Virus record (IMG/VR): IMGVR_UViG_3300021255_002251
Source: a virus
Lineage: Duplodnaviria; Heunggongvirae; Uroviricota; Caudoviricetes
Strand: one strand, 5' to 3'
Length of the DNA: 56,313 nt
Shown here: one piece after another, positions 670 to 16,723 of the stretch
Position numbering within the stretch: the first letter of the stretch is position 1
Layout of the letters: each line of letters starts with the position of its first letter
Notes under the pieces: generated by a model
What the model was told of the DNA's origin: nothing
The model's database searches: none
Seen by the model: the letters and a program-made list of their open reading frames with translations, nothing else
Translations under genes and position numbers: made by a program

Positions 670-734
670 TGTCCTTCGTCCTTCTCTTTGTCGTTGTCCT
701 TGTATGTCCGCCCACCATGGGCTTGACGGCTCAC

Positions 735-763
735 AGTATACCAAACCTGCGGACGGCTTGCAA
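735..763 (-). promoter_or_regulatory. Sigma70-type early promoter P1
   Basis: TTGCAA-17 nt-TATACT with TG extension, then GCCGTCAAG and an AAGGAC-rich leader. Confidence 0.85.
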
Positions 764-782
764 TAGGGTAATCAAAACTTTT

Positions 783-1040: not shown

Positions 1041-1738
1041 GCCGCGGCCCCCTTCCACTCTGCGGGGCAAGCCCGTCCGCTAGCGGCGAACTCGGCCCTC
1101 TGCTCCTTCGTCCCGTACTCTTCGAGGAAACGGAGCATCGCATTGTCGATGTCGCGCCACCTCGCCTTCGAGAACTTCACCCCGCAATAGCGGTAGTTCA
1201 CCTTCTGGCGGTAGGCATCGCTCGTGATAATCCACGAAAGCCCCTTCTGCGTAACCGTCACTCCGAGCGGAACGAACGGCTGCTTCGGACCGTTCTTGCG
1301 CTCCTCCGCCTTTCGGGCAATCTTCTTGCGGCACTCCTCCCGCCACTTGTTAGCATCCTCGTTGTCCGTAGGCGTGAGCATGGCGAGAATCCCAGCAGGG
1401 CAGTCGTAATAGTACGGCATCATGGTCTCGTCCATGTCCTTGTAGCCCCACACGGAACCGTCGCGTCCCCGTCCGTGGGTAAGGCATACCATCGCAAAAA
1501 CCCTTGGCTCCTTGCCGGGCTGCTCCCTCTTCACCGCCGCATAGTACACGCTCCCCACCATCGAGGACTTGAGTACCGTGTCCTTCATCGGCGGATAGAC
1601 ATGCCCGTAGGATTCAACCGGCTTCTTCCGCTCCCATGTGAAGAGCGCATCGAGCTCGGCCTTGCGGTCTACCGTGCGGTTGCCCTTCTTGTCGTACTTC
1701 CAGTAGCAGGAGTGCATGCAAGTCGTCCAGCCCATCAT
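1037..1738 (-). CDS. DUF6927-like protein
   Basis: Motifs MGWT, YYAA...VFAMVCLT and GYKDMDETMMPYYYDCPAGILAMLTPTDNEDANKWREEC match the DUF6927 pattern as recalled. Confidence 0.75.
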   Translation of the reverse strand: MMGWTTCMHSCYWKYDKKGNRTVDRKAELDALFTWERKKPVESYGHVYPPMKDTVLKSSMVGSVYYAAVKREQPGKEPRVFAMVCLTHGRGRDGSVWGYKDMDETMMPYYYDCPAGILAMLTPTDNEDANKWREECRKKIARKAEERKNGPKQPFVPLGVTVTQKGLSWIITSDAYRQKVNYRYCGVKFSKARWRDIDNAMLRFLEEYGTKEQRAEFAASGRACPAEWKGAAA

Positions 1739-1956
1739 GCCACCTCCGCATCAGTATAAACTCCATCAACAATGGCCGTAGCCCAATGTCTCCCTCTAGT
1801 GTCTGCATCTACAAGCTTCACCCTCACGTCAAACCACCAAGTGTTTCCATTCGGTAGCTTTCTATTTGCAAGGTTTCGTATCGCTTCCACAGCATCCTCA
1901 CCCTTGCTCCTATAAATCTTGTTATTGCGGATAATCTTGTAAGTGTTCTTCATCAC
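1735..1956 (-). CDS. Hypothetical protein, about 73 aa
   Basis: Overlaps both neighbours by stop-start coupling. It is more AT-rich than its flanks. Confidence 0.7.
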   Translation of the reverse strand: MMKNTYKIIRNNKIYRSKGEDAVEAIRNLANRKLPNGNTWWFDVRVKLVDADTRGRHWATAIVDGVYTDAEVA

Positions 1957-2207
1957 GCCACCGCCTTTCGCACGACATATCCCATCGCCCTTGCGGCAGA
2001 CACGAGATTCTGCAGCATGATGTCGAAAGCCATTCCCGCCTCAATACGGTTGCTTAGCGCCTTGTACACCCTAGCGGCGGGCGCGAAATCGTTGAACTCG
2101 AAGGTGCATCCCGCGCAGTACACCGTGTAGAACACCTGCTCGGTGTCCAGATGGTAGTCCGCGCTAATCCGCACGGACTTTCCGTTTTTTGTGGTCGTTG
2201 CTATCAT
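1953..2207 (-). CDS. Hypothetical protein, 84 aa
   Basis: Start moved to MIATTTKNG, after CAAGGAC and downstream of P2. Confidence 0.7.
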   Translation of the reverse strand: MIATTTKNGKSVRISADYHLDTEQVFYTVYCAGCTFEFNDFAPAARVYKALSNRIEAGMAFDIMLQNLVSAARAMGYVVRKAVA

Positions 2208-2266
2208 TGCCAGTCCTTGCTTTGTCGTTGTCCTTGTGAACTCCCCCACGCGGGGGAACGGCGCAT

Positions 2267-2295
2267 ATTGTAGCATAACCCCGTATGGCTTGCAA
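2267..2295 (-). promoter_or_regulatory. Sigma70-type early promoter P2
   Basis: TTGCAA-17 nt-TACAAT with TG extension, followed by a GC hairpin and the same 18-mer as the P1 leader. Confidence 0.85.
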
Positions 2296-2324
2296 GGGGG
2301 TAATTGAAGAATTTTTTATTTTCT

Positions 2325-2855
2325 TCAAGCGCCGAAGCAGAGCCGTCCCATCGAAGCGGACAACGCGCACTCCAAAGCCGTGGCCTCCGCGCTATAGATA
2401 TAGATGGCCACTTCCCTGTCCACTCCCGCAATCGTCTCGCTGATTACCTTCAACTGGTAGCACGGCTTTGGCTCCACGACGTGCACCATCGTGATCTTCG
2501 AAGCCCTTCCGTCCGTCTTGTGGGCGAATCCCGCCCCGTCGCGGATGCTCTCCGTCATCCCTCGCAGGCATCGCACGATTTCCGCCGCCTCGATCGGATT
2601 GATGCGCACGATGATCCTGTCCTTCCAGTTGAACGTGGGGAACACCTTGCGGTCTACGTCCCCGACCGTCATCTGCTTGGCCAGTTCTATCTGCACGTAC
2701 CCAGACTGGGTGAGCTTGGCGGGCATCAGCCGCACGGACATCGCACTGCCGTTGCCTTTGGCGTTGGGGTGGTATATCCCGAATGCGGGAATCATGTTCT
2801 GGTTCGGGATCCTTCTCGGCTTCTTGGTTTCGCTGTTCTCGTTTTCTTCTTTCAT
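2325..2855 (-). CDS. Putative Whirly-like ssDNA-binding protein
   Basis: The pattern IYH..KG.GSAM.V...P...GYV.IELA...FNW...I..I.P.E...FAH...Y.LKV...V.I.I..AE..AL parallels the plant Whirly domain. It has its own promoter, P3. Confidence 0.5.
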   Translation of the reverse strand: MKEENENSETKKPRRIPNQNMIPAFGIYHPNAKGNGSAMSVRLMPAKLTQSGYVQIELAKQMTVGDVDRKVFPTFNWKDRIIVRINPIEAAEIVRCLRGMTESIRDGAGFAHKTDGRASKITMVHVVEPKPCYQLKVISETIAGVDREVAIYIYSAEATALECALSASMGRLCFGA

Positions 2856-2887
2856 CGTGTTGTCCTTTCTTGTCCTTGACGCCGCAC

Positions 2888-2916
2888 ATTATACCACAAG
2901 TATGTTCGGCTTGCAA
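2888..2916 (-). promoter_or_regulatory. Sigma70-type early promoter P3
   Basis: TTGCAA-17 nt-TATAAT with TG extension, then GTCAAGGACAAGAAAGGAC. Confidence 0.9.
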
Positions 2917-2991
2917 TGGGACAATCCAACTTTAATGAAATAAAATATAATGGAGAGGCGGCTGCACACTGCCGCCCCTCCGAAATCGTCA

Positions 2992-4263
2992 TTATTCCGC
3001 TTCCACCTTGCACACGACCGCCACCCCCTCGGGCTCCTGATCGTCCTCTTCCAGAAACACCATGTTGCCGCCAAGTTCTATCTTCGATTCGCTTCCCGAG
3101 ACGAGGACGGAATTGTCTCTCATCGAGGTTTTGATTGTGCCGCACACGTTGGCGCTTCCGCCATATTCTCCGCTACCCACATTTCCGCTCTCGCCAACCC
3201 TGCATCCGTCGGCAACCGTGCATCCGTCGGCAACCGTGGCCCCAGCATTCCCTAGTATGACCGTAGCCCCGCCAACAAAGCACAGCCCAGACTTGCCCTT
3301 CACGGAGCCGTTGGCCTTTATCACGCTGTCAGTCACCGATCCGCCCTCCATAGCGGAAGCATTCGCGCTCATCACCGATTCTTCCTTCACTTCGCACTTG
3401 ACGAACACGTTGCCGGACAGTTTCGTCTTGCCCTCCACGCTTCCGCCCTCGCCTATGAAAGGCTGACCGTATTTTATCTGGGCTTCCCCCTTCACCGTTC
3501 CCTCGATGATCCCAGACTCGACGACCGCCTCCCCATCTACCTTCCCCGTCTTCAGGATGATAGCCTCGTGGGAAACCGTCGCATCTCCCTTCACCGTCCC
3601 GTACACGGTGGCATAGTCCTTCACGACCGCATTTCCCTCAACCGTCCCCGATATGACCTTGGAGTTCCCCGTCACGTAGGCTTGCTCCTTGATTGTGGCT
3701 TCCTCTCCAACGTATGCGCTGCCGTCCACCACTGCGTCCCCCCCGACGTTTCCCTCCACCCTAGCCGTACCGCTGACGGCTATCCGTTCGCTCCCGACTA
3801 TCCGCGCCTTGCCGTACACATAGGCATTCCCTCCGATGCCAACCGCCCCTTCTATGTAGGCTTCGCCCCCAACCTTCGCATTCTCCCCGACCTCGCCGGA
3901 CGAAAGAACCACGTCGTCGCACACGAATCCGTTGCCGCACACGATGCCGCCGCTCCTCACCCAGCACTTCCCATCCTGAGAAAGGTTGAATGTCTGCTCT
4001 ATCCATCCGCCCTTCTCTCCCATCTTCTCGACGAGTATCTTCCGCTTCTTCTCCTCGCCCTTCGTGACTTTCCCGTCCTTGCCAACGGTATACTGGACGT
4101 CGGTTATCTCTTTCTCCTCGTAGGTGATCCTCGCTATCTGGTGTCCAACGAAGGGGGGGAAGTTTTTTGGAATGACAATCTTCGGGGAACCCGTGTTCTC
4201 ATACGGCGCTCCCGTTGCGGGATCGATGAACATCTCCACGAACTTGAACTTCTTCCTCGCCAT
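2992..4263 (-). CDS. Left-handed beta-helix (hexapeptide repeat) phage protein, 423 aa
   Basis: The GGWIEQTFNLSQDGKCWV signature of the common phage LbH family is followed by about 300 aa of V/I-x-G-x-A-x repeats. Confidence 0.8.
   Translation of the reverse strand: MARKKFKFVEMFIDPATGAPYENTGSPKIVIPKNFPPFVGHQIARITYEEKEITDVQYTVGKDGKVTKGEEKKRKILVEKMGEKGGWIEQTFNLSQDGKCWVRSGGIVCGNGFVCDDVVLSSGEVGENAKVGGEAYIEGAVGIGGNAYVYGKARIVGSERIAVSGTARVEGNVGGDAVVDGSAYVGEEATIKEQAYVTGNSKVISGTVEGNAVVKDYATVYGTVKGDATVSHEAIILKTGKVDGEAVVESGIIEGTVKGEAQIKYGQPFIGEGGSVEGKTKLSGNVFVKCEVKEESVMSANASAMEGGSVTDSVIKANGSVKGKSGLCFVGGATVILGNAGATVADGCTVADGCRVGESGNVGSGEYGGSANVCGTIKTSMRDNSVLVSGSESKIELGGNMVFLEEDDQEPEGVAVVCKVEAE
3201..3236. 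repeat. 18-bp tandem duplication encoding TVADGC twice
   Basis: TGCATCCGTCGGCAACCG occurs twice in tandem, an exact hexapeptide expansion. Confidence 0.9.
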
Positions 4264-4272
4264 CTCTCACCT

Positions 4273-4707
4273 CTAAATGCTGCCGTCGTCCGATTCACCA
4301 AGCATCCCTTCTCCGCCCAATCCGCTGTCCGCATCGTCCGCATCGTCGGCGAATCCGTCCCATGTCCATTCCCGCATGAACCGCACTTCTTCCATCATCT
4401 GCCGCTTCGCCAGCCGCTTCGCATAGGTACGTTCCTCCTCGGTGAAGTCCTTGGCTATCGCCCATCTCTCCGCTACTGGCTTCTCGAACATCCGGCGAAC
4501 TCTCGCAAACCTCTCGTCGTCCTTCTTTACCCGTAGCATCCTTGGCGGCGGGATGACCGCCGCAGGCTGCGGGACTCCGGGCTTCGTGGTGTCTCCGCCC
4601 CCGCCCATGAAGAATCCCGTCATCCGGCACAAATCCGAACAGAAGCTGTCGCCCGGTCCCTTGGACTCGAACCGCCTCCCGCACTTCTTGCATTTCCTAT
4701 ACGCCAT
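4273..4707 (-). CDS. Zn-ribbon hypothetical protein
   Basis: N-terminal CKKC...FCSDLC and an acidic C-terminus. The same type of motif occurs in the 55-aa gene at 19031-19198. Confidence 0.7.
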   Translation of the reverse strand: MAYRKCKKCGRRFESKGPGDSFCSDLCRMTGFFMGGGGDTTKPGVPQPAAVIPPPRMLRVKKDDERFARVRRMFEKPVAERWAIAKDFTEEERTYAKRLAKRQMMEEVRFMREWTWDGFADDADDADSGLGGEGMLGESDDGSI

Positions 4708-4734
4708 TTGAAACAAGCCCAGCCGACAAACACA

Positions 4735-5547
4735 TTACTGGAAGAACGGCGAATCTCCGCCCTCCGCCCACGGGTCGGCTTCCGCTCCCATGTCGGGATT
4801 CGCCGCCCCGAATCCGTTAGCCCCATACTCCATCCCAGCCTCCACCGTGCTGTCTCCAGCATACGGGGCTTCCCCGACCTCCACCGCATCCGCATCTAAC
4901 GCCTTTGGCTTCGCGGTCTCAACCGCATCGTCAACATACTGCTTGACTTCCTTGCCCATCTGCTCCATCGCCGCCAGCGCCATCGGATCGGTCATCACCC
5001 CGCCTGGATTCGGCTTCGCCCCCGTCACCTTCTCGATTTCCTCCTCCGCTTCCTTCACCGCTTCGTCGGGGATGACTCCCATCACTATCCGCTCCGTCTC
5101 CTGTCCGCCTCCATCTCCCGTTATGTCCTCGGTTGTCCACCCTCTCTTCCGCCCCTTCGTCTGCAGGGTGAATATGATCGTGCTCGCATTCCCCGCCCTG
5201 TTCAGCCGATCCAACTGGTACTCCGCCTCGTCAACGATGTTCTCTCCCTGCTCTTCCTTGAGTTCCAGAAGTTCGGGGTGCTTCTTGATATACCTCGAAA
5301 GGAAACTCCTCTCGCAGTGTATCATCCCCGCTATCGTATATAGCGGAATGTTTCTCTTCAGGCAGTCCGCTATGAAATTGTACTCCTCTTCCGTGCATTC
5401 GGACGGGTGCTTGAAGATTCCGTTCGCCGCTCTCATCGGCGCCTGGCTTCTCATCTCCCTCACCGCCCTCGCAACGGACGGGCGCATCATCGGGTTAGCC
5501 GCATCTCCCAGAGGATTCCTCTCCGTTCTCTCTTCCATCTGCGTCAC
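4735..5547 (-). CDS. Putative terminase small subunit (HTH)
   Basis: An HTH-like segment is followed by DEAEYQL...GNASTIIFTLQTKGRKRGW, matching the TerS-type GN.TAIIF.LKT.GK.RGY motif. It lies downstream of ParB-like and PAPS-reductase-like genes. Confidence 0.65.
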   Translation of the reverse strand: MTQMEERTERNPLGDAANPMMRPSVARAVREMRSQAPMRAANGIFKHPSECTEEEYNFIADCLKRNIPLYTIAGMIHCERSFLSRYIKKHPELLELKEEQGENIVDEAEYQLDRLNRAGNASTIIFTLQTKGRKRGWTTEDITGDGGGQETERIVMGVIPDEAVKEAEEEIEKVTGAKPNPGGVMTDPMALAAMEQMGKEVKQYVDDAVETAKPKALDADAVEVGEAPYAGDSTVEAGMEYGANGFGAANPDMGAEADPWAEGGDSPFFQ

Positions 5548-6425
5548 TCCTCTTCGGGTCCCACTGCCTCGTTAGTCGGGATGACCATGCCAGAACCCTC
5601 GCCATCGCCTCCCTCGGGCTCTCCTCCTCCCGCTTCCCCCACCTTCGTATCGCCATCCATGCGACCTCCGCGCTTGGCTGCCTCCTGCTCCATCCACAGC
5701 GGATAGTTTGCATCTATCATCTCCTCTCGGACGTTCTTGACCTCCGCGAGCGGATACCACGTCTTCGTGAGTTCCCAGTCCCGCGGAAAATGCTCCATCA
5801 TCACCTTGTTGTACGTGGCGGACGGCACTCCGCCCATCGACCTGTTCACGTACTTGTATTCGGGCGCGAGCACGAGTCCCGCATCCGTAATCGCATTAAG
5901 CATCTCCTCCCTCGGCCAGTCCCAGCAAGGGTAGAACGTCTTGTTCCCGATGTTCTTCCCGCCCGTCTTGCGGCAGTAGATCAGCCTGTCTATGGAATCG
6001 TTCTTGCTTATTCCCACCGCGCACCATGCCCTCGGCAGGTTGAACTTCATCCGCAGATACTCGAGAACGTCCAGTTTCGTGAAGTCAACGTCGGGGATGA
6101 CCTGGTCTATCACGTCGCACTCCCAAGGGGTTTCCTGATAGATGTACCGCACGAGCGCCATCTTCAAGTCCTCTCCCATCATCCGCAGGATTCGGGTGTT
6201 CAGCATCGCTTCGAGATAGTCAAGATACTCGTCCGCAAACCTATACCCAGGGACCGTGGCGCAGTGAAAAGGAATTACGCGATTGAAGTATTTCAGGCAC
6301 TGCAGATAGGCACAAAGAGAGTCCTTTCCACGACTCATCATTATAAAAATCGTGCCGTGGCTCTTCTTCGCTATCTCCCGACAAAGCGAATCCGTGGCTT
6401 CCGTGCTGTATATCGGTAACGTCAT
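5544..6425 (-). CDS. PAPS-reductase-like PP-loop protein
   Basis: SRGKDS PP-loop variant, plus G....DS..R, FYP.WDW and L.PEY....RS..G motifs typical of phage PAPS reductase-like proteins. Confidence 0.8.
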   Translation of the reverse strand: MTLPIYSTEATDSLCREIAKKSHGTIFIMMSRGKDSLCAYLQCLKYFNRVIPFHCATVPGYRFADEYLDYLEAMLNTRILRMMGEDLKMALVRYIYQETPWECDVIDQVIPDVDFTKLDVLEYLRMKFNLPRAWCAVGISKNDSIDRLIYCRKTGGKNIGNKTFYPCWDWPREEMLNAITDAGLVLAPEYKYVNRSMGGVPSATYNKVMMEHFPRDWELTKTWYPLAEVKNVREEMIDANYPLWMEQEAAKRGGRMDGDTKVGEAGGGEPEGGDGEGSGMVIPTNEAVGPEEE

Positions 6426-6455
6426 ACTCTATGCCGCTCTCCTCTCGCCCAACAT

Positions 6456-6497
6456 AAAAAGGACGGACGCCCACCGCACCCGCGCATGGACGCCGCC
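6456..6497 (-). terminator. Probable Rho-independent terminator after the basic protein gene
   Basis: GGCGGCGTCCAT...GTGGGCGTCCGTCC imperfect hairpin followed by TTTTT. Confidence 0.6.
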
Positions 6498-6523
6498 AAT
6501 TCCCGCCCCGGATCTTGTGGATG

Positions 6524-7078
6524 CTATCTCTTGTGGCCGTCCTGCCCGATAGCCATGATGTAGCGAGACTTCGCCTTCTTCACGCCCGCATGTATCTTGC
6601 TCCCGTCGGGCTTCTTGTACCCAGGAGCATACGTGCCGCCGTCCGCATCTATCAGTTTCCGAGCTCCTCCCGTCTTGCGGAAGTTCGCCTCGCTCGACTC
6701 TCCGTTGTACATCCCCTGGTTTGCTGCGCTTCCGAGATATCCGCCCGTCCCGTCCGTGCCGAGGAACTTCTCCTTGTTCGAGTAGAACAACCCTCTCTGC
6801 TGCATGGACGTCATGGACTTGATCGGTCTCATGTTCGCTATCTTCGCAAAATACCTGCCGCCGGTTCTCATGTACCCCTTGGGCGGCTTCTGACCCATGT
6901 CCCGAATCCTCTTCGACGGAGACCCTTTCGTCCCAACCGCCTTGTCTTCCTGATTCCCGAGGAACTTCTTGGACTTCGCCTTCGCAGCCTGCTTCTTCGC
7001 ATAGTCGGAGGCGTTCTTCGCCCACTTCGCGGACTTCTTCGGCTTCTTTGCCGTCGATGCTTTCTTCTTTGTCGCCAT
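6524..7078 (-). CDS. Highly basic Lys/Gly/Ala-rich protein, 184 aa, possibly DNA-condensing
   Basis: AAGGAG RBS. The N-terminus MATKKKASTAKKPKKSAK has a histone H1-like composition. Confidence 0.8.
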   Translation of the reverse strand: MATKKKASTAKKPKKSAKWAKNASDYAKKQAAKAKSKKFLGNQEDKAVGTKGSPSKRIRDMGQKPPKGYMRTGGRYFAKIANMRPIKSMTSMQQRGLFYSNKEKFLGTDGTGGYLGSAANQGMYNGESSEANFRKTGGARKLIDADGGTYAPGYKKPDGSKIHAGVKKAKSRYIMAIGQDGHKR

Positions 7079-7188
7079 AGCTTTTTTCTCCTTGCATGAA
7101 ACGTGTCGCGCCCCGTCGCACCAGCTCCAGACCGCTTACACCATGCCAATTCTTACTTTCGGGGATGTGTGCCGATCCCTTGACCATC

Positions 7189-8139
7189 CTATATCACTCC
7201 GTCTATCCCGCTGCCGTCCTCGACCTTCCCCTCTTCCTCCTCGTTGGGCTCCGTCCCTTCGGGAATCTCTCCGCCGTTCGTCTCCCAGCCGAACTCCGTC
7301 CCGTCCATCGCCATCTCCTGCAGAGCCTTGCTCGGTTTCCCGTCTGGAAACTTCAACCCGCTGTACTCTATCTTCTTCCCAAGCGCTCCAGAAAGACTAA
7401 ATCCATTGATAAATATGTCCCTGTTAGCCTCAACTCCATACTTCTCCTTTAGGAAATCCAAGAACTCCATCTTCTGGTCGTGCGTCTCAAACACAACAAC
7501 TGAATAGAACCCCATGTCGAGTATCTCTTCGAGATTTCCTCGGCTATCCTCCCGCCGCTTCTTGAAGTCCTTGAGTTCCTGATCTTCCTCCCCATGCTCC
7601 CCCTGCTCGACTTCATCCTCCACGGGCTCCGCCATCTTCTCTTGGAAGTCCAGCGGAGTCTGCGCGAAATCCATCCCGACCGCCTTGAGGCATTCCGCAT
7701 TGAACTTCGCGACCAGCTTGTCGTAGTCCGTCTCGCCGCTCACTCCCTCCGGGCTGTTTGCCAGCAGGATGAACCGTTCTGCATGCTCGGGACTCCACCA
7801 GTTCCCGTCTGAATACTTCCCTACCGCCAGCCATTCGTCGGGTATCTTCTCGTACCCCATCTCCACCAAGGCATCGTACCGCTGGTTCCCGGAAAGGACA
7901 ACCAGTTTTCCCTCCTGCCCCTCCCACGGCCAATCCTCCCTTTCCTTCGGCAGTTCGCTCGGAACCATCCACACGACAATCGGATTCGCGCGAAGCATCT
8001 CGATGTCGCCCTTGCCGTCCCCGTCCTTCCGCAGCAGGCTTTCCATGAGCATCGTAAAGCTCCCGTCGCTTATCGTCCGGGGATTGTTGCTCAGCTTGTG
8101 CAGCTTTCCTAGATATGTGGAGAGTATTCGCCTAGCCAT
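7189..8139 (-). CDS. ParB/Srx-like N-terminal domain protein with acidic C-terminal domain
   Basis: NNPRTIS...MLRANPIVVW...VVLSGNQRYDAL.EMG is the phage ParB-N signature. Start moved to MARRILST. Confidence 0.8.
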   Translation of the reverse strand: MARRILSTYLGKLHKLSNNPRTISDGSFTMLMESLLRKDGDGKGDIEMLRANPIVVWMVPSELPKEREDWPWEGQEGKLVVLSGNQRYDALVEMGYEKIPDEWLAVGKYSDGNWWSPEHAERFILLANSPEGVSGETDYDKLVAKFNAECLKAVGMDFAQTPLDFQEKMAEPVEDEVEQGEHGEEDQELKDFKKRREDSRGNLEEILDMGFYSVVVFETHDQKMEFLDFLKEKYGVEANRDIFINGFSLSGALGKKIEYSGLKFPDGKPSKALQEMAMDGTEFGWETNGGEIPEGTEPNEEEEGKVEDGSGIDGVI

Positions 8140-8197
8140 CTGTCGCCTTCCCTGTCCCGACGGGGATGATAGCCCCTCATCCTCCGACCGAAAAATC

Positions 8198-8353
8198 CTA
8201 CTTTGCCGTTTTCGCCGCCGCACTTCTCGAGCAGCAGTCTCCGCATCCGTTGCTCACGCACCCTCCGAACATCAAAATCGCGATCGCTATAGCAATCACC
8301 GCCAGCGCCATCGGGTTCGCACCCTCCCCATCTCCGAATATCGCATCAAGCAT
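8198..8353 (-). CDS. Small Cys-rich putative lipoprotein, 51 aa (not in ORF track)
   Basis: Hand translation gives MLDAIFGDGEGANPMALAVIAIAIAILMFGG-CVSNGCGDCCSRSAAAKTAK, a hydrophobic stretch ending in a lipobox-like FGG-C. Confidence 0.55.
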   Translation of the reverse strand: MLDAIFGDGEGANPMALAVIAIAIAILMFGGCVSNGCGDCCSRSAAAKTAK

Positions 8354-8371
8354 CTTCTCATCTCTTCTTTC

Positions 8372-8749
8372 TTACTCGCCATTGCAACAGTAATACGTCG
8401 CATCCAATGGGAGAAATATCGTATCCAGCACGACTTCGCATGCCTCGTCAACAACCCATAGCGGCCACGTCACAGTAGCCACCGCCGACCATATCGCATC
8501 GGGACCGTCATTGAGATGCGCAGGCGCGCATATGCAATCGTCCCACACCTGTTCCGTCGAATAGTAGGGATGAGGCTGCAGGAAATACGGACTCCTCTTT
8601 CCGCTCTCTGACCTCACCGCTATGTTGCAGCACCCTCCACCGAACAAGAGGGCTATCGTCCAGAACACGGAGAAGAACATTCCCCATGCCACAACGAACG
8701 CCGCCCGTCGGCTCATCGGCTTCTCCGAACCTGTCTCCGTCCCGTCCAT
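8372..8749 (-). CDS. YceK/YidQ-like lipoprotein
   Basis: Signal stretch plus GGG-C, then PY..T and VD...VV.DT.FLP.D motifs characteristic of YceK/YidQ (DUF1375). Confidence 0.6.
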   Translation of the reverse strand: MDGTETGSEKPMSRRAAFVVAWGMFFSVFWTIALLFGGGCCNIAVRSESGKRSPYFLQPHPYYSTEQVWDDCICAPAHLNDGPDAIWSAVATVTWPLWVVDEACEVVLDTIFLPLDATYYCCNGE

Positions 8750-8750
8750 C

Positions 8751-9437
8751 TTACAGCAATTCCTGTTCCGCCGCCATCATATCCGCTCTAGCCCTCTTCC
8801 CTTTCCGCCCCCGCCTCTTCTTCCTCGGCCGCTCTACAGCAACAGCCGTTTCCTCATGGTTCTCTTCGGGGATGGCTGCCTCTTCTATCGGCTTAGACAG
8901 TTTCCCCTCACATACCTCATTGGATTCAGGAGTCAGTTCCTTGCCGTACTCTGGATCGTCGTATGGCTCCGTGGCATTCGCCTGCTCTTCAGCCACATCT
9001 TCTGTCACCCCGTCCGCCAGCGGCTTCATTTCCTGTGCCGCTTCCAGCAAATCCGTCAGCCGCTCTTCCTTGGCGGTCATCCCCTTCGCCACCCACTCTG
9101 TCTTCTCCTTTGGTTTCTCTACCAACTTCACTCCGGGAACCTTTGCCCTCACTTCCGCCCGTCTCTTCTCTTCCGCCTCTTTAGCCGCTTTCCGCTTGAC
9201 CGCTTCCTCGATTCCCTTCTTCTCCGCTGCCGCATCCCAAGCCTTTACCCGCACAAGCGTCCCGCTCTTTATCCCCGCATTCGCCAGAACAACCTTTGCC
9301 GGCACTCCTCCGACCATTCTCGGAAGCACCGAATGAACTCCTCTCGCCATTCCCGTAGGATGATTGCCCCCATTCGGAAGCACAATCCGTCTCTCTCCTC
9401 CCACATGCGGATTTATCCTAGGCAATATCTCGTTCAT
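8751..9437 (-). CDS. Hypothetical charged protein, 228 aa
   Basis: AAGGAG RBS, abuts the downstream gene, E/K/R-rich. Confidence 0.7.
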   Translation of the reverse strand: MNEILPRINPHVGGERRIVLPNGGNHPTGMARGVHSVLPRMVGGVPAKVVLANAGIKSGTLVRVKAWDAAAEKKGIEEAVKRKAAKEAEEKRRAEVRAKVPGVKLVEKPKEKTEWVAKGMTAKEERLTDLLEAAQEMKPLADGVTEDVAEEQANATEPYDDPEYGKELTPESNEVCEGKLSKPIEEAAIPEENHEETAVAVERPRKKRRGRKGKRARADMMAAEQELL

Positions 9438-9490
9438 TTTGGGTCTCCTTCAATCTCGAACTCATCGTTCCAGCACAAATATTGCCCACT

Positions 9491-9967
9491 TTACCAGAAC
9501 TTCCACCAATTTTTAGCCTTTTTAGGCGGTAAAATACCAAATCTAGCCCTTCTTTTCGCCAATTCTTCCTCTTTTTTGGCTTTTAATTCCTTCAAAACTC
9601 TCTTTTTAGCCCTCTCTTCCGCCCCAAACCTCACCCGGTACCATCTTTTCACCCATCTTGCACATTTCCGCCAGCCTTTATTCCGCCGATTCCAGTCCGC
9701 TACCGTGTCCTCTATGCTCCATCCCTCCAAATGTCGCTCGATATACCTGCTGCACTCTTCCGTCTTGTCGCATCCGACCCAGACTCCGTTCCCTCTTAAC
9801 CCAAAAAGAACTATCTTCGCAGCCCCCTTGCACACGGGACACTTCGCCAGCCCTTCCGTCAGCCTCCGTACAAGCGACTCCTTCGCCGCCCTCGCCTTGA
9901 GGACTCGCTTCTCACCTCCCGTCTCCCTCCACAACGGCTTCTTGGATGGTGCCGCCTCTTCCGTCAT
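9491..9967 (-). CDS. Lar-like (restriction alleviation) Zn-finger protein
   Basis: CPVCKG.A...V.C....C...WNRR pattern of the Lar family. Confidence 0.55.
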   Translation of the reverse strand: MTEEAAPSKKPLWRETGGEKRVLKARAAKESLVRRLTEGLAKCPVCKGAAKIVLFGLRGNGVWVGCDKTEECSRYIERHLEGWSIEDTVADWNRRNKGWRKCARWVKRWYRVRFGAEERAKKRVLKELKAKKEEELAKRRARFGILPPKKAKNWWKFW

Positions 9968-10137
9968 GCCGTCCTTCCATCATCGATATCGATCGTCTCG
10001 TCCTTCTCATCTTCCATGTCGATGAAATCTTCGAGACCGCATATCCCGTCCCACACATCCCGATTAAGCCAGTACACGACCAGCCACACGAATGCTATCA
10101 CTCCCAAGATGCACCCTATCCCGATTATCCAGCCCAT
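9964..10137 (-). CDS. Small membrane protein, 57 aa (not in ORF track)
   Basis: Hand translation gives MGWIIGIGCILGVIAFVWLVVYWLNR plus an acidic tail. It is coupled to both neighbours. Confidence 0.7.
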   Translation of the reverse strand: MGWIIGIGCILGVIAFVWLVVYWLNRDVWDGICGLEDFIDMEDEKDETIDIDDGRTA

Positions 10138-10671
10138 CTAACTCACCAGCACTTTCGGTATCTGTCCGCTTCCGACCGCTTCCTTGTTTCCGTCAGCCCT
10201 TTGGTAGGATGAAGAGCCGCCTCGATAGCCCCTAGACTCTTCCCTCGCAGCCTTGAACTGTTCCCGCTTGTTATAGAATCGCCTCATCGTGACAGGAGCC
10301 ATGCCTTGCTCAAATCCAGCGGGTGCATTCGTGGTATCGTAGACAATCCTCTTTCGCCCATGTCTCCGAGGATATGCGCTCTTGCAAGTCCCATGCTCAG
10401 AAATCGGCAACTCTCCAACAAAGCAGAATCGCCCGACCGTGATGGCTTCACCGCTTGGAGAGAACTTCCGAAACTCTAAGCAATGGCAGCAATGAGGACA
10501 AGTCGTAATCTCCCGATAGTCGTACTTCTCCCGAAATGTAATTGCCCGTCTCTCTCTATCGGCAATCGCCCTAGCATCCGTATCGCCAAATATGCCAGCG
10601 ACAAACAAGCCGTTCTCATTTGGAAGGCTACTATCCTCTTCGGTTTCTATGAAGCGTTCTTTGTTGTTCAT
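10138..10671 (-). CDS. Cys-cluster hypothetical protein, 177 aa
   Basis: CPHCCHC...C...C motif. Start moved to MNNKERF. Confidence 0.65.
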   Translation of the reverse strand: MNNKERFIETEEDSSLPNENGLFVAGIFGDTDARAIADRERRAITFREKYDYREITTCPHCCHCLEFRKFSPSGEAITVGRFCFVGELPISEHGTCKSAYPRRHGRKRIVYDTTNAPAGFEQGMAPVTMRRFYNKREQFKAAREESRGYRGGSSSYQRADGNKEAVGSGQIPKVLVS

Positions 10672-10757
10672 TTTGGGACTTCGTGTGCACATACGCGAGG
10701 CGATGACACAGAGCCGCCGCCCTATCGCAAGCCATGCCGCCCTCTTTCCTCTTTCCC

Positions 10758-11454
10758 TATAAGATATCATTTATTAGAACTATAATAAAGAGTAAGAATA
10801 TATTGTAGATGGGGAAGTGGAGGGAACGGAATGGAGATGGAGGGAGAGCGGCTATGAGGGTATGTTGCTTTGTTGTGCTACGATGATGATGATTCGGGGG
10901 TGGATTGCAGAGGTGCATGAGCAAGCGAGCCGAAAGGAGGGGAGGAAACGGAGAGCGGGGGAATCATTCGGGAGGGTGTGGGGAGGTATGGAGCGGAGAG
11001 CTAGGAGAGCAATCATTAGATTGTGGAGCATCTATCATTGAGAGAGAGGGAGAGAGCCTTAAAGATAGCGATTCGGAGTGGGGGATATAATAGGGGGTCT
11101 AATAATAATAATAATAATATTACTATGTAGAGATATGTAGGAATATAGGGATAGTAATAGTAATAGTAATAGTAATATGAGTATAAGTATGAGTATGAGT
11201 AATAATAATACTACTATGTATGTAGATATGTAGTATGATAGTATAGTATGAGTATAGTGAGTAAGATAATAATAATAATAATAAGTAGTATGTATAGTAT
11301 GTATAGGAGAGTAGTATAGTAATAAGGGTATAAGAGATAATTTAATATACACGTGTGCGGGCGCGCGTGAGAGGTGAGAATAAGAAAATCCCCCCTTCAC
11401 CATGAGGTGTGGGGGGAAGGTGGAAAGTTGGGTTAGAATGGGGAGAGGAGGGGA
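10758..11454. other. Putative replication origin region
   Basis: Longest noncoding stretch in the window. The + strand flips abruptly from C/T-rich to G/A-rich although flanking genes share orientation. It contains an AT-rich repeat tract. Confidence 0.55.
11100..11340. repeat. Low-complexity (AAT)n / (TAGTAA)n / AGTATR tract
   Basis: Two (AAT)n runs, (TAGTAA)x4 and AGTATG/AGTATA repeats. Only 3 C in 11101-11340 by hand count. Confidence 0.9.
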
Positions 11455-12822
11455 TTATGCGGATTGCTTCTCTTGGGAGTCCTTGAAAGCTTCGATGAGA
11501 GCGGCAATGGGACGGGAAAGGTGGGTGTAGGGAATAGACTTGAAGGGCTTGGTTTCCCCGATGGTGGCACGGAGGGAGATACGGTCGTTGTTGTGGAGGC
11601 AACGGAAGGATTCGGAGGAAGTCGTGAAGTGATAGAAGGTGCCGTTGGAGTCGGTGAAGTCCACGATGTACTTGGTAACGGAGACACAGTGGTAGCCGTC
11701 ATAGCAGGCTTCGTCCTGAATGGTGCGAATGTTGGTGATGATGCCCGTGAGGGTCTGGCGGGAGTTGACGGGGTAAGCGCAAGGGACGATGGTGAGGGAC
11801 TTGGCGGTCTCGGCGTCGCGGAGGGATTTCACCTTTGCATTGTAGGCGGCGAAAATCGCATAGGAGAAGGAGCCGAGGGAGCGGCGGGTGGTGTAGCCCG
11901 CCTGGACGGCTTGGAGGCAATTGTAGGCGAAGGAAGAGCGCTCCTTGTCGTATTTGGCTTGCCAGAAGGAGACGATTTCGGCGGGGGAGAGGAGAGAGGC
12001 ATTGTTGCGGTCTCCGTCGGAGGTGGAGATTGGGTGCATGGTGTCCCAAGAGGTGAGGACGGATTCGACGGCGGAGGCGGTAGGCTGCTCGTAGATGGGG
12101 CGTGAGGCGTCGAAGAACGAGCCATAGCCGTCCTTCTTGTTCCACTTGATGAAGCCTTTGGTGCAGAGGGAGACGACTGGAATGAGGGTGGAAATTCCGT
12201 AGCAGAGGGAGTTGTCCTTGAAGCCGCCAAGTTCCTCTTCGGTGCCGTCGCGGAGGGTGATGAAGGTGTTGCCGTATGTCTGCAGGAAGGCGGCAGAATC
12301 TATGCCGAAGTATTCCTTGGCGCATGTGGAGCCGATTTGGAGGATTTCGTTTGTACGGGTGTTGCGGAAGAGGTAGTAGGCCTTGCGGTTTGTGCGGGTA
12401 ACGTGGCAGTGGTCGCAGAAGTTGGGGCGGAAATCGTCCATGAAGAAGTTGGCATAGGCTTCGTTGTTGCAGAAAATCTGCTTTACGCCGTCCTCGAAGG
12501 AGACGGTGCCGAGATAGGTGTATTCAACATCGTCCTTCTTGATGGTGGTAAGCCCCTTGCAGTGGACATCGCAGACTTCAACGAGACGTTCCTCGATTTT
12601 GTCGTTGCGGAAAGCATCGCCCTTCATGTGGTACTCAAAGGTTACGGGGACGGCTCGGGGTTCGGAGAAGGTGTAGGTAATCGGGGGCTTGCCGTGCTTG
12701 GCGAGAATGCGGTTGAGGTGCTTCATCTTCTTGATGAAGGTGTCCTTCTTGGAGAGCCAGAGGGTCTGGGTGAAGTCCGCGAGGTAGAGGGAGTGGGAGA
12801 GGGGGGCGGTTTCGGGAGTCAT
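11455..12822 (-). CDS. Conserved large-phage protein with CDHC...GSTC Zn site and C-terminal OB-fold-like domain, 455 aa
   Basis: CDHCHVTRTNRKAYYLFRN...QIGSTCAKEYFG motif and a C-terminal D.NG..Y.F.TS...L.ATI...T.LSR pattern. It has its own promoter, P4. Confidence 0.75.
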   Translation of the reverse strand: MTPETAPLSHSLYLADFTQTLWLSKKDTFIKKMKHLNRILAKHGKPPITYTFSEPRAVPVTFEYHMKGDAFRNDKIEERLVEVCDVHCKGLTTIKKDDVEYTYLGTVSFEDGVKQIFCNNEAYANFFMDDFRPNFCDHCHVTRTNRKAYYLFRNTRTNEILQIGSTCAKEYFGIDSAAFLQTYGNTFITLRDGTEEELGGFKDNSLCYGISTLIPVVSLCTKGFIKWNKKDGYGSFFDASRPIYEQPTASAVESVLTSWDTMHPISTSDGDRNNASLLSPAEIVSFWQAKYDKERSSFAYNCLQAVQAGYTTRRSLGSFSYAIFAAYNAKVKSLRDAETAKSLTIVPCAYPVNSRQTLTGIITNIRTIQDEACYDGYHCVSVTKYIVDFTDSNGTFYHFTTSSESFRCLHNNDRISLRATIGETKPFKSIPYTHLSRPIAALIEAFKDSQEKQSA

Positions 12823-12892
12823 GGTTTAGGTTTCCTTTCGGGTATTGTCTTTGTTTGTCTTGTCTTGTCCTTGTTTGTCGTTGACGGCGGGT

Positions 12893-12921
12893 ATTATATC
12901 AAAGGTTCGGTTAGGTTGCAA
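12893..12921 (-). promoter_or_regulatory. Sigma70-type early promoter P4
   Basis: TTGCAA-17 nt-TATAAT with TG extension. The leader reads GTCAACGACAAACAAGGACAAGACAAGACAAAC. Confidence 0.9.
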
Positions 12922-12942
12922 TGGGGTAATGGAGAAAAATAT

Positions 12943-12978
12943 AAAAAAGTTTTAGGGGGGATTTTTAGTCCCCCCTTA
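12943..12978 (-). terminator. Probable terminator
   Basis: GGGGGGA-CTAAAAA-TCCCCCC hairpin followed by TAAAACTTTTTT on the minus strand. Confidence 0.5.
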
Positions 12979-13040
12979 ACAATCCCCTCTATAATATTAT
13001 AATGAGTATGAATATATAATATATATGGGGAATGAGAGGC

Positions 13041-13319
13041 TTATCCGAAGAGGCACTTGCGGGCGTCGCGGAAAGAGAGGTTCAGGTGATAGTAAACCCC
13101 GTCGATGTAAGCGGCGCAAGTTGCGGAGAGACCGCTTTCGGAAGTCTCGAACTTTACGAGGTGGATTGTTGATTTCCTCTTGTCTATGACGATGGAATCC
13201 ACCTTGAAGTTGTAGAGTTCATCATCGTCGATTTTGTGTTGGAGAACTGGGATTTCCACGATGTTCGTGTTCTTCTTGGGGGCCTTTGCGGCGGAATCCT
13301 TCTTTGCTGGCATTGCCAT
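13041..13319 (-). CDS. Hypothetical protein, paralog of 13360-13644
   Basis: Shared N.N.VE..V...DD......I..DK.K and a C-terminal ..LFG. Confidence 0.75.
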   Translation of the reverse strand: MAMPAKKDSAAKAPKKNTNIVEIPVLQHKIDDDELYNFKVDSIVIDKRKSTIHLVKFETSESGLSATCAAYIDGVYYHLNLSFRDARKCLFG

Positions 13320-13359
13320 ATTGTGTTTTCCTTTCTTGTTTTTTGGGGGGTGAAATTGG

Positions 13360-13644
13360 TTATCCGAAAAGGATTTTCCTTACTTCGGCATAGGTGTTGT
13401 TGACGTAGAAAGTCTGTCCCATTACGTTGATGAGGCACGGACCGAGGCATCCTGCGTCTGGGCGGTCCTTTGACATGAGTACGAATGGAGTTTTCGACTT
13501 GTCAAAGCAGATTTTCTGAATTGCAACGTCTGCTTCGTCGTCTGGGAATGTCATGACGTAGAGTTCAACCATGTTTGAATTGTCTATGGCAGAGGTCTCC
13601 TTCATGGGCGGAGGAGGGGTAGGGTCGCTTGCGCTTGTTACCAT
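13360..13644 (-). CDS. Hypothetical protein, paralog of 13041-13319
   Basis: AAGGA RBS and the shared motifs given for 13041-13319. Confidence 0.75.
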   Translation of the reverse strand: MVTSASDPTPPPPMKETSAIDNSNMVELYVMTFPDDEADVAIQKICFDKSKTPFVLMSKDRPDAGCLGPCLINVMGQTFYVNNTYAEVRKILFG

Positions 13645-13702
13645 TTGGCGTTCCTTTTCTTGGTTTGTGAGTTTTCAAAACGGCTTGAGTTCGGCGGGAA
13701 CA

Positions 13703-14134
13703 TTAGGGTTTCCTGACTATGGGCAGGTAGTTAGTAGAGACTTGCAGAACGGTGTCGAAACCGAGGGCATTGACGTGTTCCGGGACGGCTATGCCTTCGG
13801 AGGGGCGGCAGAAGCCGCATGCGCATGGAATTCGGACTAGATTGGTGGAGACAAGCTGGGCATAGAGGCTGATGTTGCTGGTGCCGTTGGTGATGGCGGA
13901 TTCTATCTCGGACAAGCGGCCTTTTAGTTCCGCTATGTCGTTCACCATGATTTCATAGGAGGGAGGTGGGCAGTAGTCCTTCTTCGTCATCTGCTCTTTT
14001 GATTGGCGAATGAGCGATCGGGACGCTCCGCATAGGCTTAGGAAAGCTCCGCAGAGGCAAATAAAGACGAGAACGATGCAAAGGTGTTCTGTCAGAAGAG
14101 TATGATTGCTCGATAAGAAGTCTTTTAGTTTCAT
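13703..14134 (-). CDS. Membrane-anchored coiled-coil protein
   Basis: N-terminal hydrophobic helix and the heptad segment DIAELKGRLSEIESAI. Confidence 0.7.
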   Translation of the reverse strand: MKLKDFLSSNHTLLTEHLCIVLVFICLCGAFLSLCGASRSLIRQSKEQMTKKDYCPPPSYEIMVNDIAELKGRLSEIESAITNGTSNISLYAQLVSTNLVRIPCACGFCRPSEGIAVPEHVNALGFDTVLQVSTNYLPIVRKP

Positions 14135-14136
14135 TT

Positions 14137-14298
14137 TTAAGTTTTCTCGGTAGGTATGGGGCTATTGTGGGTAGGGTAGGCTTTCTGGAAGTAGAGATGA
14201 GCCGTGCAGCCTGCAATGTGGTAAGAGACAACCGCCAGAATGGTAATGAGAAAGGCTTTTACGATTCTTTCGGAGAGGGTGGATTTGCGCTTTCTCAT
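14137..14298 (-). CDS. Small putative lipoprotein, 53 aa (not in ORF track)
   Basis: Hand translation gives MRKRKSTLSERIVKAFLITILAVVSYHIAG-CTAHLYFQKAYPTHNSPIPTEKT. It has a GAGGAG upstream and an IAG-C lipobox. Confidence 0.6.
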   Translation of the reverse strand: MRKRKSTLSERIVKAFLITILAVVSYHIAGCTAHLYFQKAYPTHNSPIPTEKT

Positions 14299-14341
14299 TT
14301 TAGGGGTGCTCCTCTTTCTGTGACAGGCTTCTAAACAATGC

Positions 14342-14758
14342 TTAGTGGCTAGGAGGGGTACGGCTCTCGAAGCGTTCTAGGCGGTTTAAGACGGCTTCTA
14401 TGAGGTGTCCGTTGCGGTCTATGGACCTAGTTTGCTCATGATAGAGTTCCAAGAGGCGTCCGTAATCGGTGGACTTGATTTCGTTCATGTCGGAATCTAG
14501 TGCATCTAGGCTTTTCTCTATCCTATCCAGACGGGAGGATATGCCTAGGTTTGTGGTGCATAGGGTGCCGCCACCGTCGTTTTCCGCAATCCAGTCGTTG
14601 GGGGCAACTTTGGAGGGGTTGTTGCCTATGGTGTTTTTGCAGACTTCGCAAGTGTCGAAATGTCTTACATATCCCCTTATGGCGAACAAAAACAATACCG
14701 TAGTAATAGCAAATACGACCAAAGCAAGTATGGGGAAAGTTAATTCTTTAAGTATCAT
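14342..14758 (-). CDS. Membrane-anchored coiled-coil protein
   Basis: N-terminal TM helix and RLDRIEKSLDAL heptads. Confidence 0.75.
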   Translation of the reverse strand: MILKELTFPILALVVFAITTVLFLFAIRGYVRHFDTCEVCKNTIGNNPSKVAPNDWIAENDGGGTLCTTNLGISSRLDRIEKSLDALDSDMNEIKSTDYGRLLELYHEQTRSIDRNGHLIEAVLNRLERFESRTPPSH

Positions 14759-15003
14759 TTGGAAGTCTCCTTGTTGTTCTTGATTGTGAGGACGGGCAGG
14801 AAGTCCCTGGCGGCGGCGAGGGCGGTTAGTCCAGCGATAGCCGACATATTGATAGAAGCGGGGGACAATACCGTATTGCCTAGTTCCTTGATGATTTGGT
14901 TTAGGGCTGCTTCTATGTCATTTAGGCGGTTGCCTAGCATCTGGACGAATGGGTATCCCTCATCCTTTGGAAGGGGACTTGACGTTATCATTCTTCGCAT
15001 CAT
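14755..15003 (-). CDS. Hypothetical coiled-coil protein (start uncertain)
   Basis: RLNDIEAALNQI resembles the neighbouring coiled coils. ATGA overlap with the next gene. Confidence 0.55.
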   Translation of the reverse strand: MMRRMITSSPLPKDEGYPFVQMLGNRLNDIEAALNQIIKELGNTVLSPASINMSAIAGLTALAAARDFLPVLTIKNNKETSK

Positions 15004-15034
15004 AGGTGGGAGTTCATTTCTGGTAGTCTTTTTG

Positions 15035-15727
15035 TCAGCGTGAAGCCTTAAGGATATCCGCAAACTTCTGTGCCTCTCTACGGACGTTGCAGAGAGACTT
15101 TAATTCCTCCGCATCTATCTTGGAGGGGATTAGCGGATTCTCGATGTTCGGGTCTAGTGCAAAAAACAGGTGATTGTCGGCTACCGCCTTGAAGAGCCTA
15201 TAGAGTTCCCTTACAATGGGCTTGCGGCGGTCTTCCGGAGTTTTGAGGAAGTCCATGCGAATGACAGCGGCAATGGCGGCGATGTCCCGATAGAGGTCTC
15301 GGAGACTGGTGAGATAGGCTATGGTTGATTCTACGTCCTTGAGGTTCTTGAAGTATCGTTCCGACACCTGACTGGAGTAGTCGGCTAGGACATCCGTGTA
15401 GGAGCGTAGAGTGGCATCCATCGTCTCATATGGGATTAGGGGGGTAGCCCCTAGGTCCCCATAGGTGGCTAGGAAGTCTTGCCGCTTCTTCAATGCTTCG
15501 TCGAGAGAGGTGATGATAGGGGGCAGCAAGGAGGTTAGGTCGCCTAATCTACTCTTTGCTAGTGAGAGTTTCGTGAATTCCTCTTGTGTGCTGGTGATGG
15601 TGTAGGTGAGGGCTTGCGCTTTCGCATTGAGGGCGCCGATGGTTTCAGGGGGGTAGTGGTCTGCCCACTCCTTGACCAGTAGTTCTGAAATGGTAGAAGT
15701 GTCCAGTTTTTGCGGTTTTTTAGCCAT
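15035..15727 (-). CDS. Hypothetical alpha-helical protein, 230 aa
   Basis: Long ORF with an AAGGA RBS. Confidence 0.75.
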   Translation of the reverse strand: MAKKPQKLDTSTISELLVKEWADHYPPETIGALNAKAQALTYTITSTQEEFTKLSLAKSRLGDLTSLLPPIITSLDEALKKRQDFLATYGDLGATPLIPYETMDATLRSYTDVLADYSSQVSERYFKNLKDVESTIAYLTSLRDLYRDIAAIAAVIRMDFLKTPEDRRKPIVRELYRLFKAVADNHLFFALDPNIENPLIPSKIDAEELKSLCNVRREAQKFADILKASR

Positions 15728-15768
15728 CGTGTAGTTTCCTTTTTAGACTGGTAGGGAGTGGTAAATTT

Positions 15769-16638
15769 TTAGTTATCACCAGTCTCCGTACTAGTTGGTT
15801 GGGGTGGTGAGGCACTAGGGTAAAATTCCTTCTTTGAAACGGAGAAAGTCAGTTCTTCCGTGCCGTCCTTTGCGGTTTCTCTCTTGATTATCACATCTTT
15901 CTGCCACCTCTTGTAAGCCTCTAGGAAGAGGGGGAAAGAGGGATACTGTGTCTCTGCCATGATGAGTGGAAAATCCTTGTAGAACTTCTCATGGTACTCT
16001 GGTTCGCCTTGGTAGAGGTAGAAAGCCGTAGAGGGAGAGTCTTTGATGTATTCGGCAAATCTCTTTGCGGATTCTTCCCTCTGGCGCTTCCTCACGAAAT
16101 CGGCAAGGCCTGGGTTCTTCCTACAGACTTCCGCATACTCTCTCTCCGCTTGAAGGACATAAGGTGTTACCCCAGTCGTGAAGTGTCCGCAGGCGAGGGT
16201 ATAGGGGCGGACTCCTTGTCCAGCGCTTCTTCTTGTGCATTTTGCCGCAAGCCGTCCTTTGTCCATCTCCTTTGTCTCATAGTAGGAGCAACGAAAGCAT
16301 AGGTGCTTTCCAGTAGATTCTATGAACCTCTCTAGTTCATCGTCCGCCTTGAAGAATGCTTGTGCTTCTGGAGTATCGTCCTTGTGCTTCTTCGGGTCGT
16401 AGGCTCTCTCTGCGGCATTCTTCTTGTCGGATAGTTCATCGAATTTCTTGCGCTGTTCTGGTGTTATGGAAGATTCCCAGAACAGTGATTCCACCATGTA
16501 GGCATCGTATGGGTTGTCCTCCACCTCTGTCACTTCATCCATCGTGCGCAGGAGGAATTCTTCTGCTCTAGGGCAGGTTAGGCGAATCGGTTCGCCAAAG
16601 TTAGCCTTGATAGTCCGTATGGGCGTTAGTTCTTCCAT
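15769..16638 (-). CDS. Hypothetical protein with CxxC...C...C cluster, 289 aa
   Basis: Start moved to MEELTP, 6 nt after the P5 -10 box. Confidence 0.75.
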   Translation of the reverse strand: MEELTPIRTIKANFGEPIRLTCPRAEEFLLRTMDEVTEVEDNPYDAYMVESLFWESSITPEQRKKFDELSDKKNAAERAYDPKKHKDDTPEAQAFFKADDELERFIESTGKHLCFRCSYYETKEMDKGRLAAKCTRRSAGQGVRPYTLACGHFTTGVTPYVLQAEREYAEVCRKNPGLADFVRKRQREESAKRFAEYIKDSPSTAFYLYQGEPEYHEKFYKDFPLIMAETQYPSFPLFLEAYKRWQKDVIIKRETAKDGTEELTFSVSKKEFYPSASPPQPTSTETGDN

Positions 16639-16644
16639 GGAGAT

Positions 16645-16674
16645 AGTATAGCATAGGGTGCTTGTGGCTTTCAA
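16645..16674 (-). promoter_or_regulatory. Sigma70-type promoter P5, probably leaderless
   Basis: TTGAAA-18 nt-TATACT with TG extension and the same ACCCC..TTG.AAGCC context as the other promoters. Confidence 0.7.
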
Positions 16675-16723
16675 GAGGGGGTAGGATTAAAACGGCAAAT
16701 CGTCATCATCGTTACTGTGACGC

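Follow-up and report, generated by a model that had tools for sequence, protein, structure and literature searches.

A sharp strand-skew flip in an uncultured jumbo phage probably marks one end of a long terminal redundancy

The DNA analyzed here (the window) is a stretch of 56,313 nucleotides (nt) that opens a 223,335-nt virus record of the Caudoviricetes (IMGVR_UViG_3300021255_002251, hereafter G000), in which nearly all genes lie on the minus strand. Our results showed that base composition switches between the strands at position 10757/10758, where the cumulative G minus C count has its minimum, and that this flip is real, conserved in a relative and unusually strong. We consider it probable that the flip is the right-hand end of a terminal redundancy of ~40-45 kb and that the skew was left by strand-displacing DNA synthesis primed there. 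The phage is an uncultured jumbo myophage, and the runs containing it are mostly labelled as gut metagenomes. The relative G001 (251,769 nt, ~90% identical to G000) supplies 44 kb that are absent from G000, between the G000 end and the window start, and lacks G000 94-122 kb. G001 coordinates are given on its reverse complement, where the flip lies at 167.43 kb. The features at the flip are as follows.

1..10757, minus strand: left (inner) skew arm, where G prevails on the minus strand; it forms the right-hand part of the double-depth block described below
10757..10808, no strand: skew switch point (cumulative minimum at 10757) and AT-rich core of ~50 nt, nearly identical in G001
10758..16700, plus strand: right (outer) skew arm, with the + strand G-rich, decaying over ~6 kb through at least seven minus-strand genes and their spacers
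10809..11099, plus strand: non-coding, purine-rich, C-poor spacer (skew +0.66), with indels relative to G001 but the same composition
11100..11345, no strand: A/T/G-only low-complexity tract of 245 nt, with C-free runs of 135 and 87 nt
11350..11369, no strand: short GC-rich motif ending the tract, identical in G001
11455..12822, minus strand: gene for a 455-amino-acid (aa) phrog_2319 protein (E 5e-21), function not assigned

To the left of the flip, GC skew in 250-nt bins was between -0.11 and -0.52 over 9.5-10.75 kb, and directly to the right it was +0.66. The 1-kb skew jump at the flip (0.85) is the greatest in G000 and G001 (standard deviation, 0.10); the second greatest (0.41) lies at a tRNA cluster, where the direction of transcription really changes, and 200 block shuffles of the window yielded no value above 0.61. 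At four-fold sites the jump was 1.32, compared with a standard deviation of 0.15 and a maximum of 0.59 for a null of 209 other gene junctions in the two rumen-type genomes. On the + strand, these sites comprised 63 G and 189 C in the 3 kb to the left and 210 G and 22 C in the 3 kb to the right (p = 4e-52). The genes on both sides of this comparison are all on the minus strand, which confirms the proposal, made in a preliminary description of the sequence, of a skew inversion at about 10758 regardless of gene direction.

Third codon positions, in which a switch had been predicted, behaved in the same way. Skew on the coding strand was +0.29 and then +0.48 (7.2-10.7 kb) to the left of the flip, and to the right it was -0.87 (11455-12822), -0.65 (13-15 kb), -0.34 (15-16.6 kb) and -0.06 (16.7-20 kb), against a genome baseline of +0.15. 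The right arm dies away in about 6 kb, in agreement with the earlier estimate of 5-6 kb. C exceeded G in eight of eight codon boxes for each of three right-arm gene sets, and G exceeded C in seven of eight just left of the flip. Non-coding DNA shares the skew (230 G and 49 C in 10758-11454), and spacer skew follows coding skew. The genome is C-rich on the + strand almost throughout.

A unitig from sequencing run X1 spans 3060-12023 with 0 differences in the parts compared, G001 is collinear across the flip (90.6% identity over 11 kb), and two shorter contigs of the G001 strain group have the same profile. Since a single unitig crosses the flip and a phage of 90% identity shares it, we reject a chimera, the artifact that the preliminary description had singled out for checking. 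Searches for more distant relatives containing the site returned close strains only. The mismatch spectrum between G000 and G001 mostly reflects composition and cannot be polarised.

Rightward from the flip come the AT-rich core, the purine-rich spacer, the tract and the GC-rich motif, beyond which the 455-aa gene ends. The tract is the lowest-complexity 200-nt window in both genomes (0.21-0.22; next, 0.40-0.42), and its sequence is conserved in G001. A physical genome end could lie anywhere from the core at 10757 to the tract at 11100, and the tract is a predicted candidate for a terminase-loading or unwinding element. An exact 25-nt match to the GC-rich motif region was found in only one viral_contigs stretch, which is G001. 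Between 9 and 14.5 kb we found only low-complexity repeat families and no iteron array, and there was no + strand consensus promoter at the flip. Putative AT-rich unwinding-type elements are present at 10758-10808 and 11100-11345. The + strand carries two copies of a short AT-rich element, at 10790 (the flip) and 13004 (upstream of the 455-aa gene), and G001 keeps only the first copy as a match.

In three runs, each from a different study, assembly depth to the left of the flip was roughly double that to the right. The X1 unitigs that match the window exactly had depths of 176 (1-3028), 152 (3060-12023, across the flip) and 105 (from 12055); farther left, the values were 181-188, 198, 212 and then 154.7 along G001 140 to 121 kb, and the ratio of 212 to 105 is 2.0. 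In X6, depth was 30-35 inside the block and 17.6 on a contig mostly right of the flip, with 34.8, 23.9 and 17 on the far side. The X2 contigs whose difference counts match G001 had depths of 21-25 on the left and 8.2-8.7 on the right, a declining ratio of ~2.6. X1 depth within the block tracks GC content (r = -0.997; four points, three with G001 GC, post hoc), and a post hoc GC-depth fit to the four unitigs gave a 2.1-fold ratio with a right edge at ~10.4 kb; the model-free bounds of this edge are 9.2-12.05 kb. The high-depth block is ~40-45 kb long in G001, where it extends ~30 kb past the window start. Its far edge was placed at ~128 kb in X6 (estimated from a straddling contig), at 127-130 kb, gradually, in X2 and at >124 kb in X1. 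The extra depth lies on one side of the flip only, the side with the weaker skew arm. The RNA run X20 left 10-15.7 kb uncovered but is unstranded and shallow, so it is no evidence either way.

The skew inside the block forms a gradient. In G001, the four-fold + strand skew declines along a straight line from 129 to 167 kb (r = -0.91, p = 3e-8) and crosses zero at 145 kb, compared with a midpoint of 148 kb. It reaches -0.58 at 164-166 kb and then becomes +0.86, a jump of +1.39 at 167.4 kb. A second upward jump (+0.39; best of a scan, p ~1e-6 uncorrected) lies at 128.6-129.2 kb, and the depths of both X6 and X2 drop near it. Intergenic skew across the block was +0.11, +0.01, -0.22 and -0.37. Genes here are small, with a median of 118 aa (130.5-158 kb) versus 174-209 elsewhere. 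Two upward jumps with a linear fall between them give the profile the form of a skew N-domain. In human DNA, this shape is interpreted as forks entering from two borders (PMC3320577). The human domains described there share with the phage block the upward jumps at the borders, the linear fall and a change of sign near the middle; unlike them, the phage domain is 38 kb rather than megabases long and coincides with a double-depth block (PMC3320577). This depth-matched N-shaped skew profile is what the window adds.

Ten edges of long terminal repeats from seven cultured phages were compared with the flip; the repeat of phage K is annotated as inferred. Five edges with same-strand genes on both sides were tested, and those that coincide with a change of gene strand were excluded (XacN1 right, CBB left, T5, SPO1 and K). 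A jump of the same sign was present at four of the five testable edges. It was significant at XacN1 left (+0.95, p = 6e-7), CBB right (+0.72, p = 7e-5) and PA5oct left (+0.62, p = 0.004), but not at PA5oct right (+0.37, p = 0.058). Repeat genes and unique genes may differ in their codon use, which could account for part of these jumps, and the null of gene junctions was drawn from the two rumen-type genomes and not from the cultured phages. The XacN1 profile, from -0.47 (a left count of 30 sites) to +0.57 with a decay over ~7 kb in minus-strand genes, resembles that of the window. No jump was found at the SPP1 pac site (-0.17, p = 0.19). The suggestion in the preliminary description that the flip could be a junction of genome termini fits best with the two-fold depth step nearby and with the same kind of jump at mapped long-repeat ends.

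Long direct terminal repeats are reported for XacN1 (65,875 bp), PA5oct (39,080 bp) and CBB (22,456 bp) in GenBank and in PMC5852040 and PMC7318152, and PMC7111523 gives doubled coverage as the expected sign of packaged terminal repeats. The block resembles these systems in its similar length, double depth, dense small genes and same-sign edge jump. A low-complexity tract (0.33) also lies just outside the mapped left end of PA5oct, as one lies beside the proposed end here. In contrast to these phages, the jump is bigger (1.31 vs 0.37-0.95), the capsid is of the phrog_264/DUF2184 type, the terminase is PBSX-like, no DNA polymerase was found among the scanned proteins, and the ends are inferred from contigs.

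The large terminase matched TIGR01547 (PBSX) at 66.6 bits, below the cut-off of 105. PBSX-type terminases are regarded as headful packagers. Headful packaging is supported for SPP1 (PMC6316719), and the features SPP1 shares with our phage are a PBSX-like terminase match, a possible small terminase near the site, a DnaB helicase, RecE/RecT-like genes and a presumed reliance on host polymerase. Differences from SPP1 are the lack of a pac skew jump there, the need for about one headful per series if a full two-fold block is to arise, and a redundancy that would be ~15% of the genome here. For the far end of the block, an exact long direct repeat appears slightly more probable than a headful cut from a pac site; the type of terminase speaks for pac/headful packaging, which makes a fixed right end combined with an imprecise left end almost as probable as an exact repeat.

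The proposed mechanism begins with DNA synthesis that would be primed repeatedly at the chromosome end, i.e., the flip. Synthesis from each edge would displace the strand running 5' to 3' away from that edge, and the displaced strands would lose C and gain G. Inward synthesis from both repeat edges, by extension of staggered nicks, could duplicate the repeat, and inward forks meeting at variable points could leave the N-shaped linear gradient. The 3' end of the + strand might also prime outward into unique DNA through a recombination D-loop, a step beside which we cite the phage-encoded RecE/RecT-like proteins, RusA, SSB, DnaB and DnaG. The strand displaced there would remain unpaired over a few kb, up to the point where a complete fork is in place, giving the 6-kb right arm. 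Prolonged local exposure of single-stranded DNA, which had also been suggested, fits best alongside genome ends, and such exposure may have occurred at the flip. The geometry of nick-primed displacement synthesis is shared with models of T7-type short repeats, in which duplication proceeds by nicking and strand displacement, but those repeats are <250 bp (PMC4281155). For long repeats, the duplication mechanism is stated to be unknown (PMC8541194). More tentatively, and with appreciable doubt, we suggest that nicks at the edges of the repeat launch two strand-displacement forks that run toward each other and duplicate it, with the ends also priming outward, that the N-shape is the fossil record of this process, and that the footprint shared with XacN1, CBB and PA5oct makes both ends and mechanism readable from sequence.

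Several observations weigh against placing a genome end at the flip. The depths derive from assembled contigs only, are not copy numbers and come without read-end pile-ups, and X1 may itself be the source of the window. On the far side, X2 falls gradually (19, 14, 13 vs 8.5), X5, compared on that side only, has no clear step (5.4-7), and X1 was not seen to return to 105 (last unitig, 154.7), its edge lying beyond 124 kb and not at 128-129 kb. The strongest skew arm lies beyond the block and calls for an additional hypothetical step. Among the mapped ends, five of ten edges lie at a change of gene strand, phiCbK right had no jump (-0.06), T5 has no upward jump in total skew, and neither T5 nor the CBB right end is the top total-skew jump of its region. 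The PBSX-like terminase is closest to those of small siphoviruses, not of long-repeat phages. Finally, T is not enriched on the G-rich strand, unlike the prediction of simple C-to-T deamination.

The 455-aa gene is under the strongest C pressure, with 174 C and 12 G at four-fold sites. Its third-position skew of -0.87 is in part a gene-specific codon preference, since a 45%-identical homolog in another setting (locus L009; -0.52) and the capsid, protease and sheath genes (-0.20) are also C-biased. Total skew is flat in L009, a weak control, as its third positions are C-biased. A protein-specific effect as the whole cause was rejected; neighbours and spacers are still explained by position. The claim that codon use follows the skew held for the C and G counts of the codon boxes, which switch at the flip, and held partly for the C-ending bias of this gene. 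Compositional pressure extends to the protein sequence: with 37 of 49 homolog matches aligned, the ratio of P, T, S, H and L to G, E, D, V and R was 1.09-1.64 in the query and in all ten homologs at >=61% identity, and <=0.89 in 22 of 27 at 40-57%. The flip was not seen at distant homologs (phiAS5, Stormageddon, 144E46.1, L005 and L010-L017). An atlas search with the protein returned unnamed viral clusters only. A relative's contig in X6 omits 11375-12956, and the gene is therefore accessory. With 3711 representatives at E 0.001, phrog_2319 is a very large family; it has an invariant Cys/His cluster and an amino-acid composition that is bimodal among homologs, which perhaps reports gene position.

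An internal replication origin, rather than a genome end, is an unlikely alternative. Forks would start at the AT-rich tract, 350 nt from the flip; the leftward fork would run with transcription, the rightward fork would stall head-on within a few kb, the left-hand depth would be replicating DNA, and the N-domain would have a second origin at its far border, near G001 129 kb. The polarity, with a G-rich leading strand, agrees with this, as do the gradual leftward fall of X2 depth and the N-shape between two jumps, a pattern known from pairs of origins between which the termination point varies (PMC3320577). However, X1 and X6 depths are flat or rising over >40 kb at near two-fold, depth is not raised on the side of the stronger arm, and SPP1 gene 38, which contains oriL, lacks such a jump (+0.14, p = 0.36). 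No initiator family was found among the neighbours of the flip, although family-less proteins could be initiators, and the DnaB gene is ~90 kb away. With no replichore-wide reversal, iteron array or identified initiator nearby, and with one-sided extra depth, the classical bidirectional origin of the preliminary description was not upheld.

Transcription combined with codon selection is still less probable as the cause. Antisense (+ strand) RNA or an R-loop would strip C from the + strand, and early, highly expressed genes would prefer C-ending codons, as the L009 homolog and the capsid genes do; the next-greatest third-position jump (0.59) lies at the capsid genes, and there is a + strand promoter-like site at 12976. 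Against this, ~25 strong consensus promoters elsewhere have no such jump, the single true divergent promoter pair, at the tRNA cluster, gave 0.41 vs 0.85, the flip itself has no + strand consensus promoter, and the depth step and 38-kb gradient are left unexplained. An assembly chimera or a recently inserted foreign segment, which the accessory nature of the 455-aa gene might favor, is very improbable given the difference-free unitig, the collinearity of G001, the smooth decay across numerous genes, and the continuity of the sequence that contains the second jump and the gradient. Two further candidates were rejected: what is labelled an 'inverted terminal repeat' in G001 proved to be a 127-nt match within an IS-like element that is itself repeated, and was not used, and GRINS were set aside, as G001 self-comparison gave no second copy of the region.

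Other features lie on either side of the flip.

12921-12893, minus strand: sigma70-like promoter sequence of the 455-aa gene
12976-12954, minus strand: terminator-like hairpin, a sequence feature in 12893..13003
12976-13003, plus strand: promoter-like site, not kept as a match in G001
7189..8160, minus strand: ParB-like protein (phrog_620, E 1e-6; 147 homologs)
5544..6425, minus strand: PAPS-reductase-like protein (phrog_424, E 2e-7)
4735..5547, minus strand: helix-turn-helix protein, candidate terminase small subunit as a lead only (atlas 0.95)

One extended sigma70 promoter, followed by a common downstream leader, recurs about 25 times across the genome (e.g., window 2916, 12921, 16674, 25288, 28357 and 30761), and these repeats break assemblies. 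The candidate small terminase gene is 5.2 kb from the flip, inside the double-depth block; atlas feature matches (0.95) link its product to helix-turn-helix and terminase-small-subunit clusters, and we found no PHROG, Pfam or NCBIfam family and no tblastn match in named phages. The best 30 of 715 matches to the large terminase are from small siphoviruses and unclassified phages. Two terminase-large-subunit-like genes were seen (L029:14749-16434 and L027:14080-14871); an N-terminal stretch of the former matches an intein-bearing helicase model, and the G001 insertion is longer there. The ParB-like and PAPS-reductase-like genes lie close together (5544-8160), and several methyltransferases and glycosyltransferases are encoded elsewhere, possibly as parts of one DNA modification system. 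The flip was absent at the four profiled of 33 distant ParB-like loci.

Among 47 proteins of the window and 143 further ones, PHROG scans identified capsid, sheath, baseplate, portal and terminase, as well as DnaB, DnaG, SSB, clamp, RecE/RecT-like proteins and RusA, and no DNA polymerase apart from an exonuclease subunit. The 38 tRNA genes form two clusters (G000 170.9-172.9 kb and 210.4-213.4 kb, window numbering extended), the second on the + strand behind a divergent promoter pair. Two giant proteins of BspA-type leucine-rich repeats (window 33457-44466 and 45001-55908; 3669 and 3635 aa), the second with a baseplate-wedge N-terminus, are likely tail adhesins. The phage also encodes an FtsK-like protein (1646 aa; L022:9646-14586) and a ClpX above the NCBIfam cut-off (L029:4948-6258).

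A search of titles and the beginnings of abstracts found no literature linking skew jumps to terminal-repeat edges, a link that older SPO1, T5 and T7 papers may treat. Our results caution that a local skew minimum need not be an origin. The skew gradient that matches the double-depth block predicts which strand is single-stranded where. If our interpretation is correct, genome ends in uncultured jumbo phages could be placed without reads, and base composition may preserve a record of the way in which their long terminal repeats are copied.

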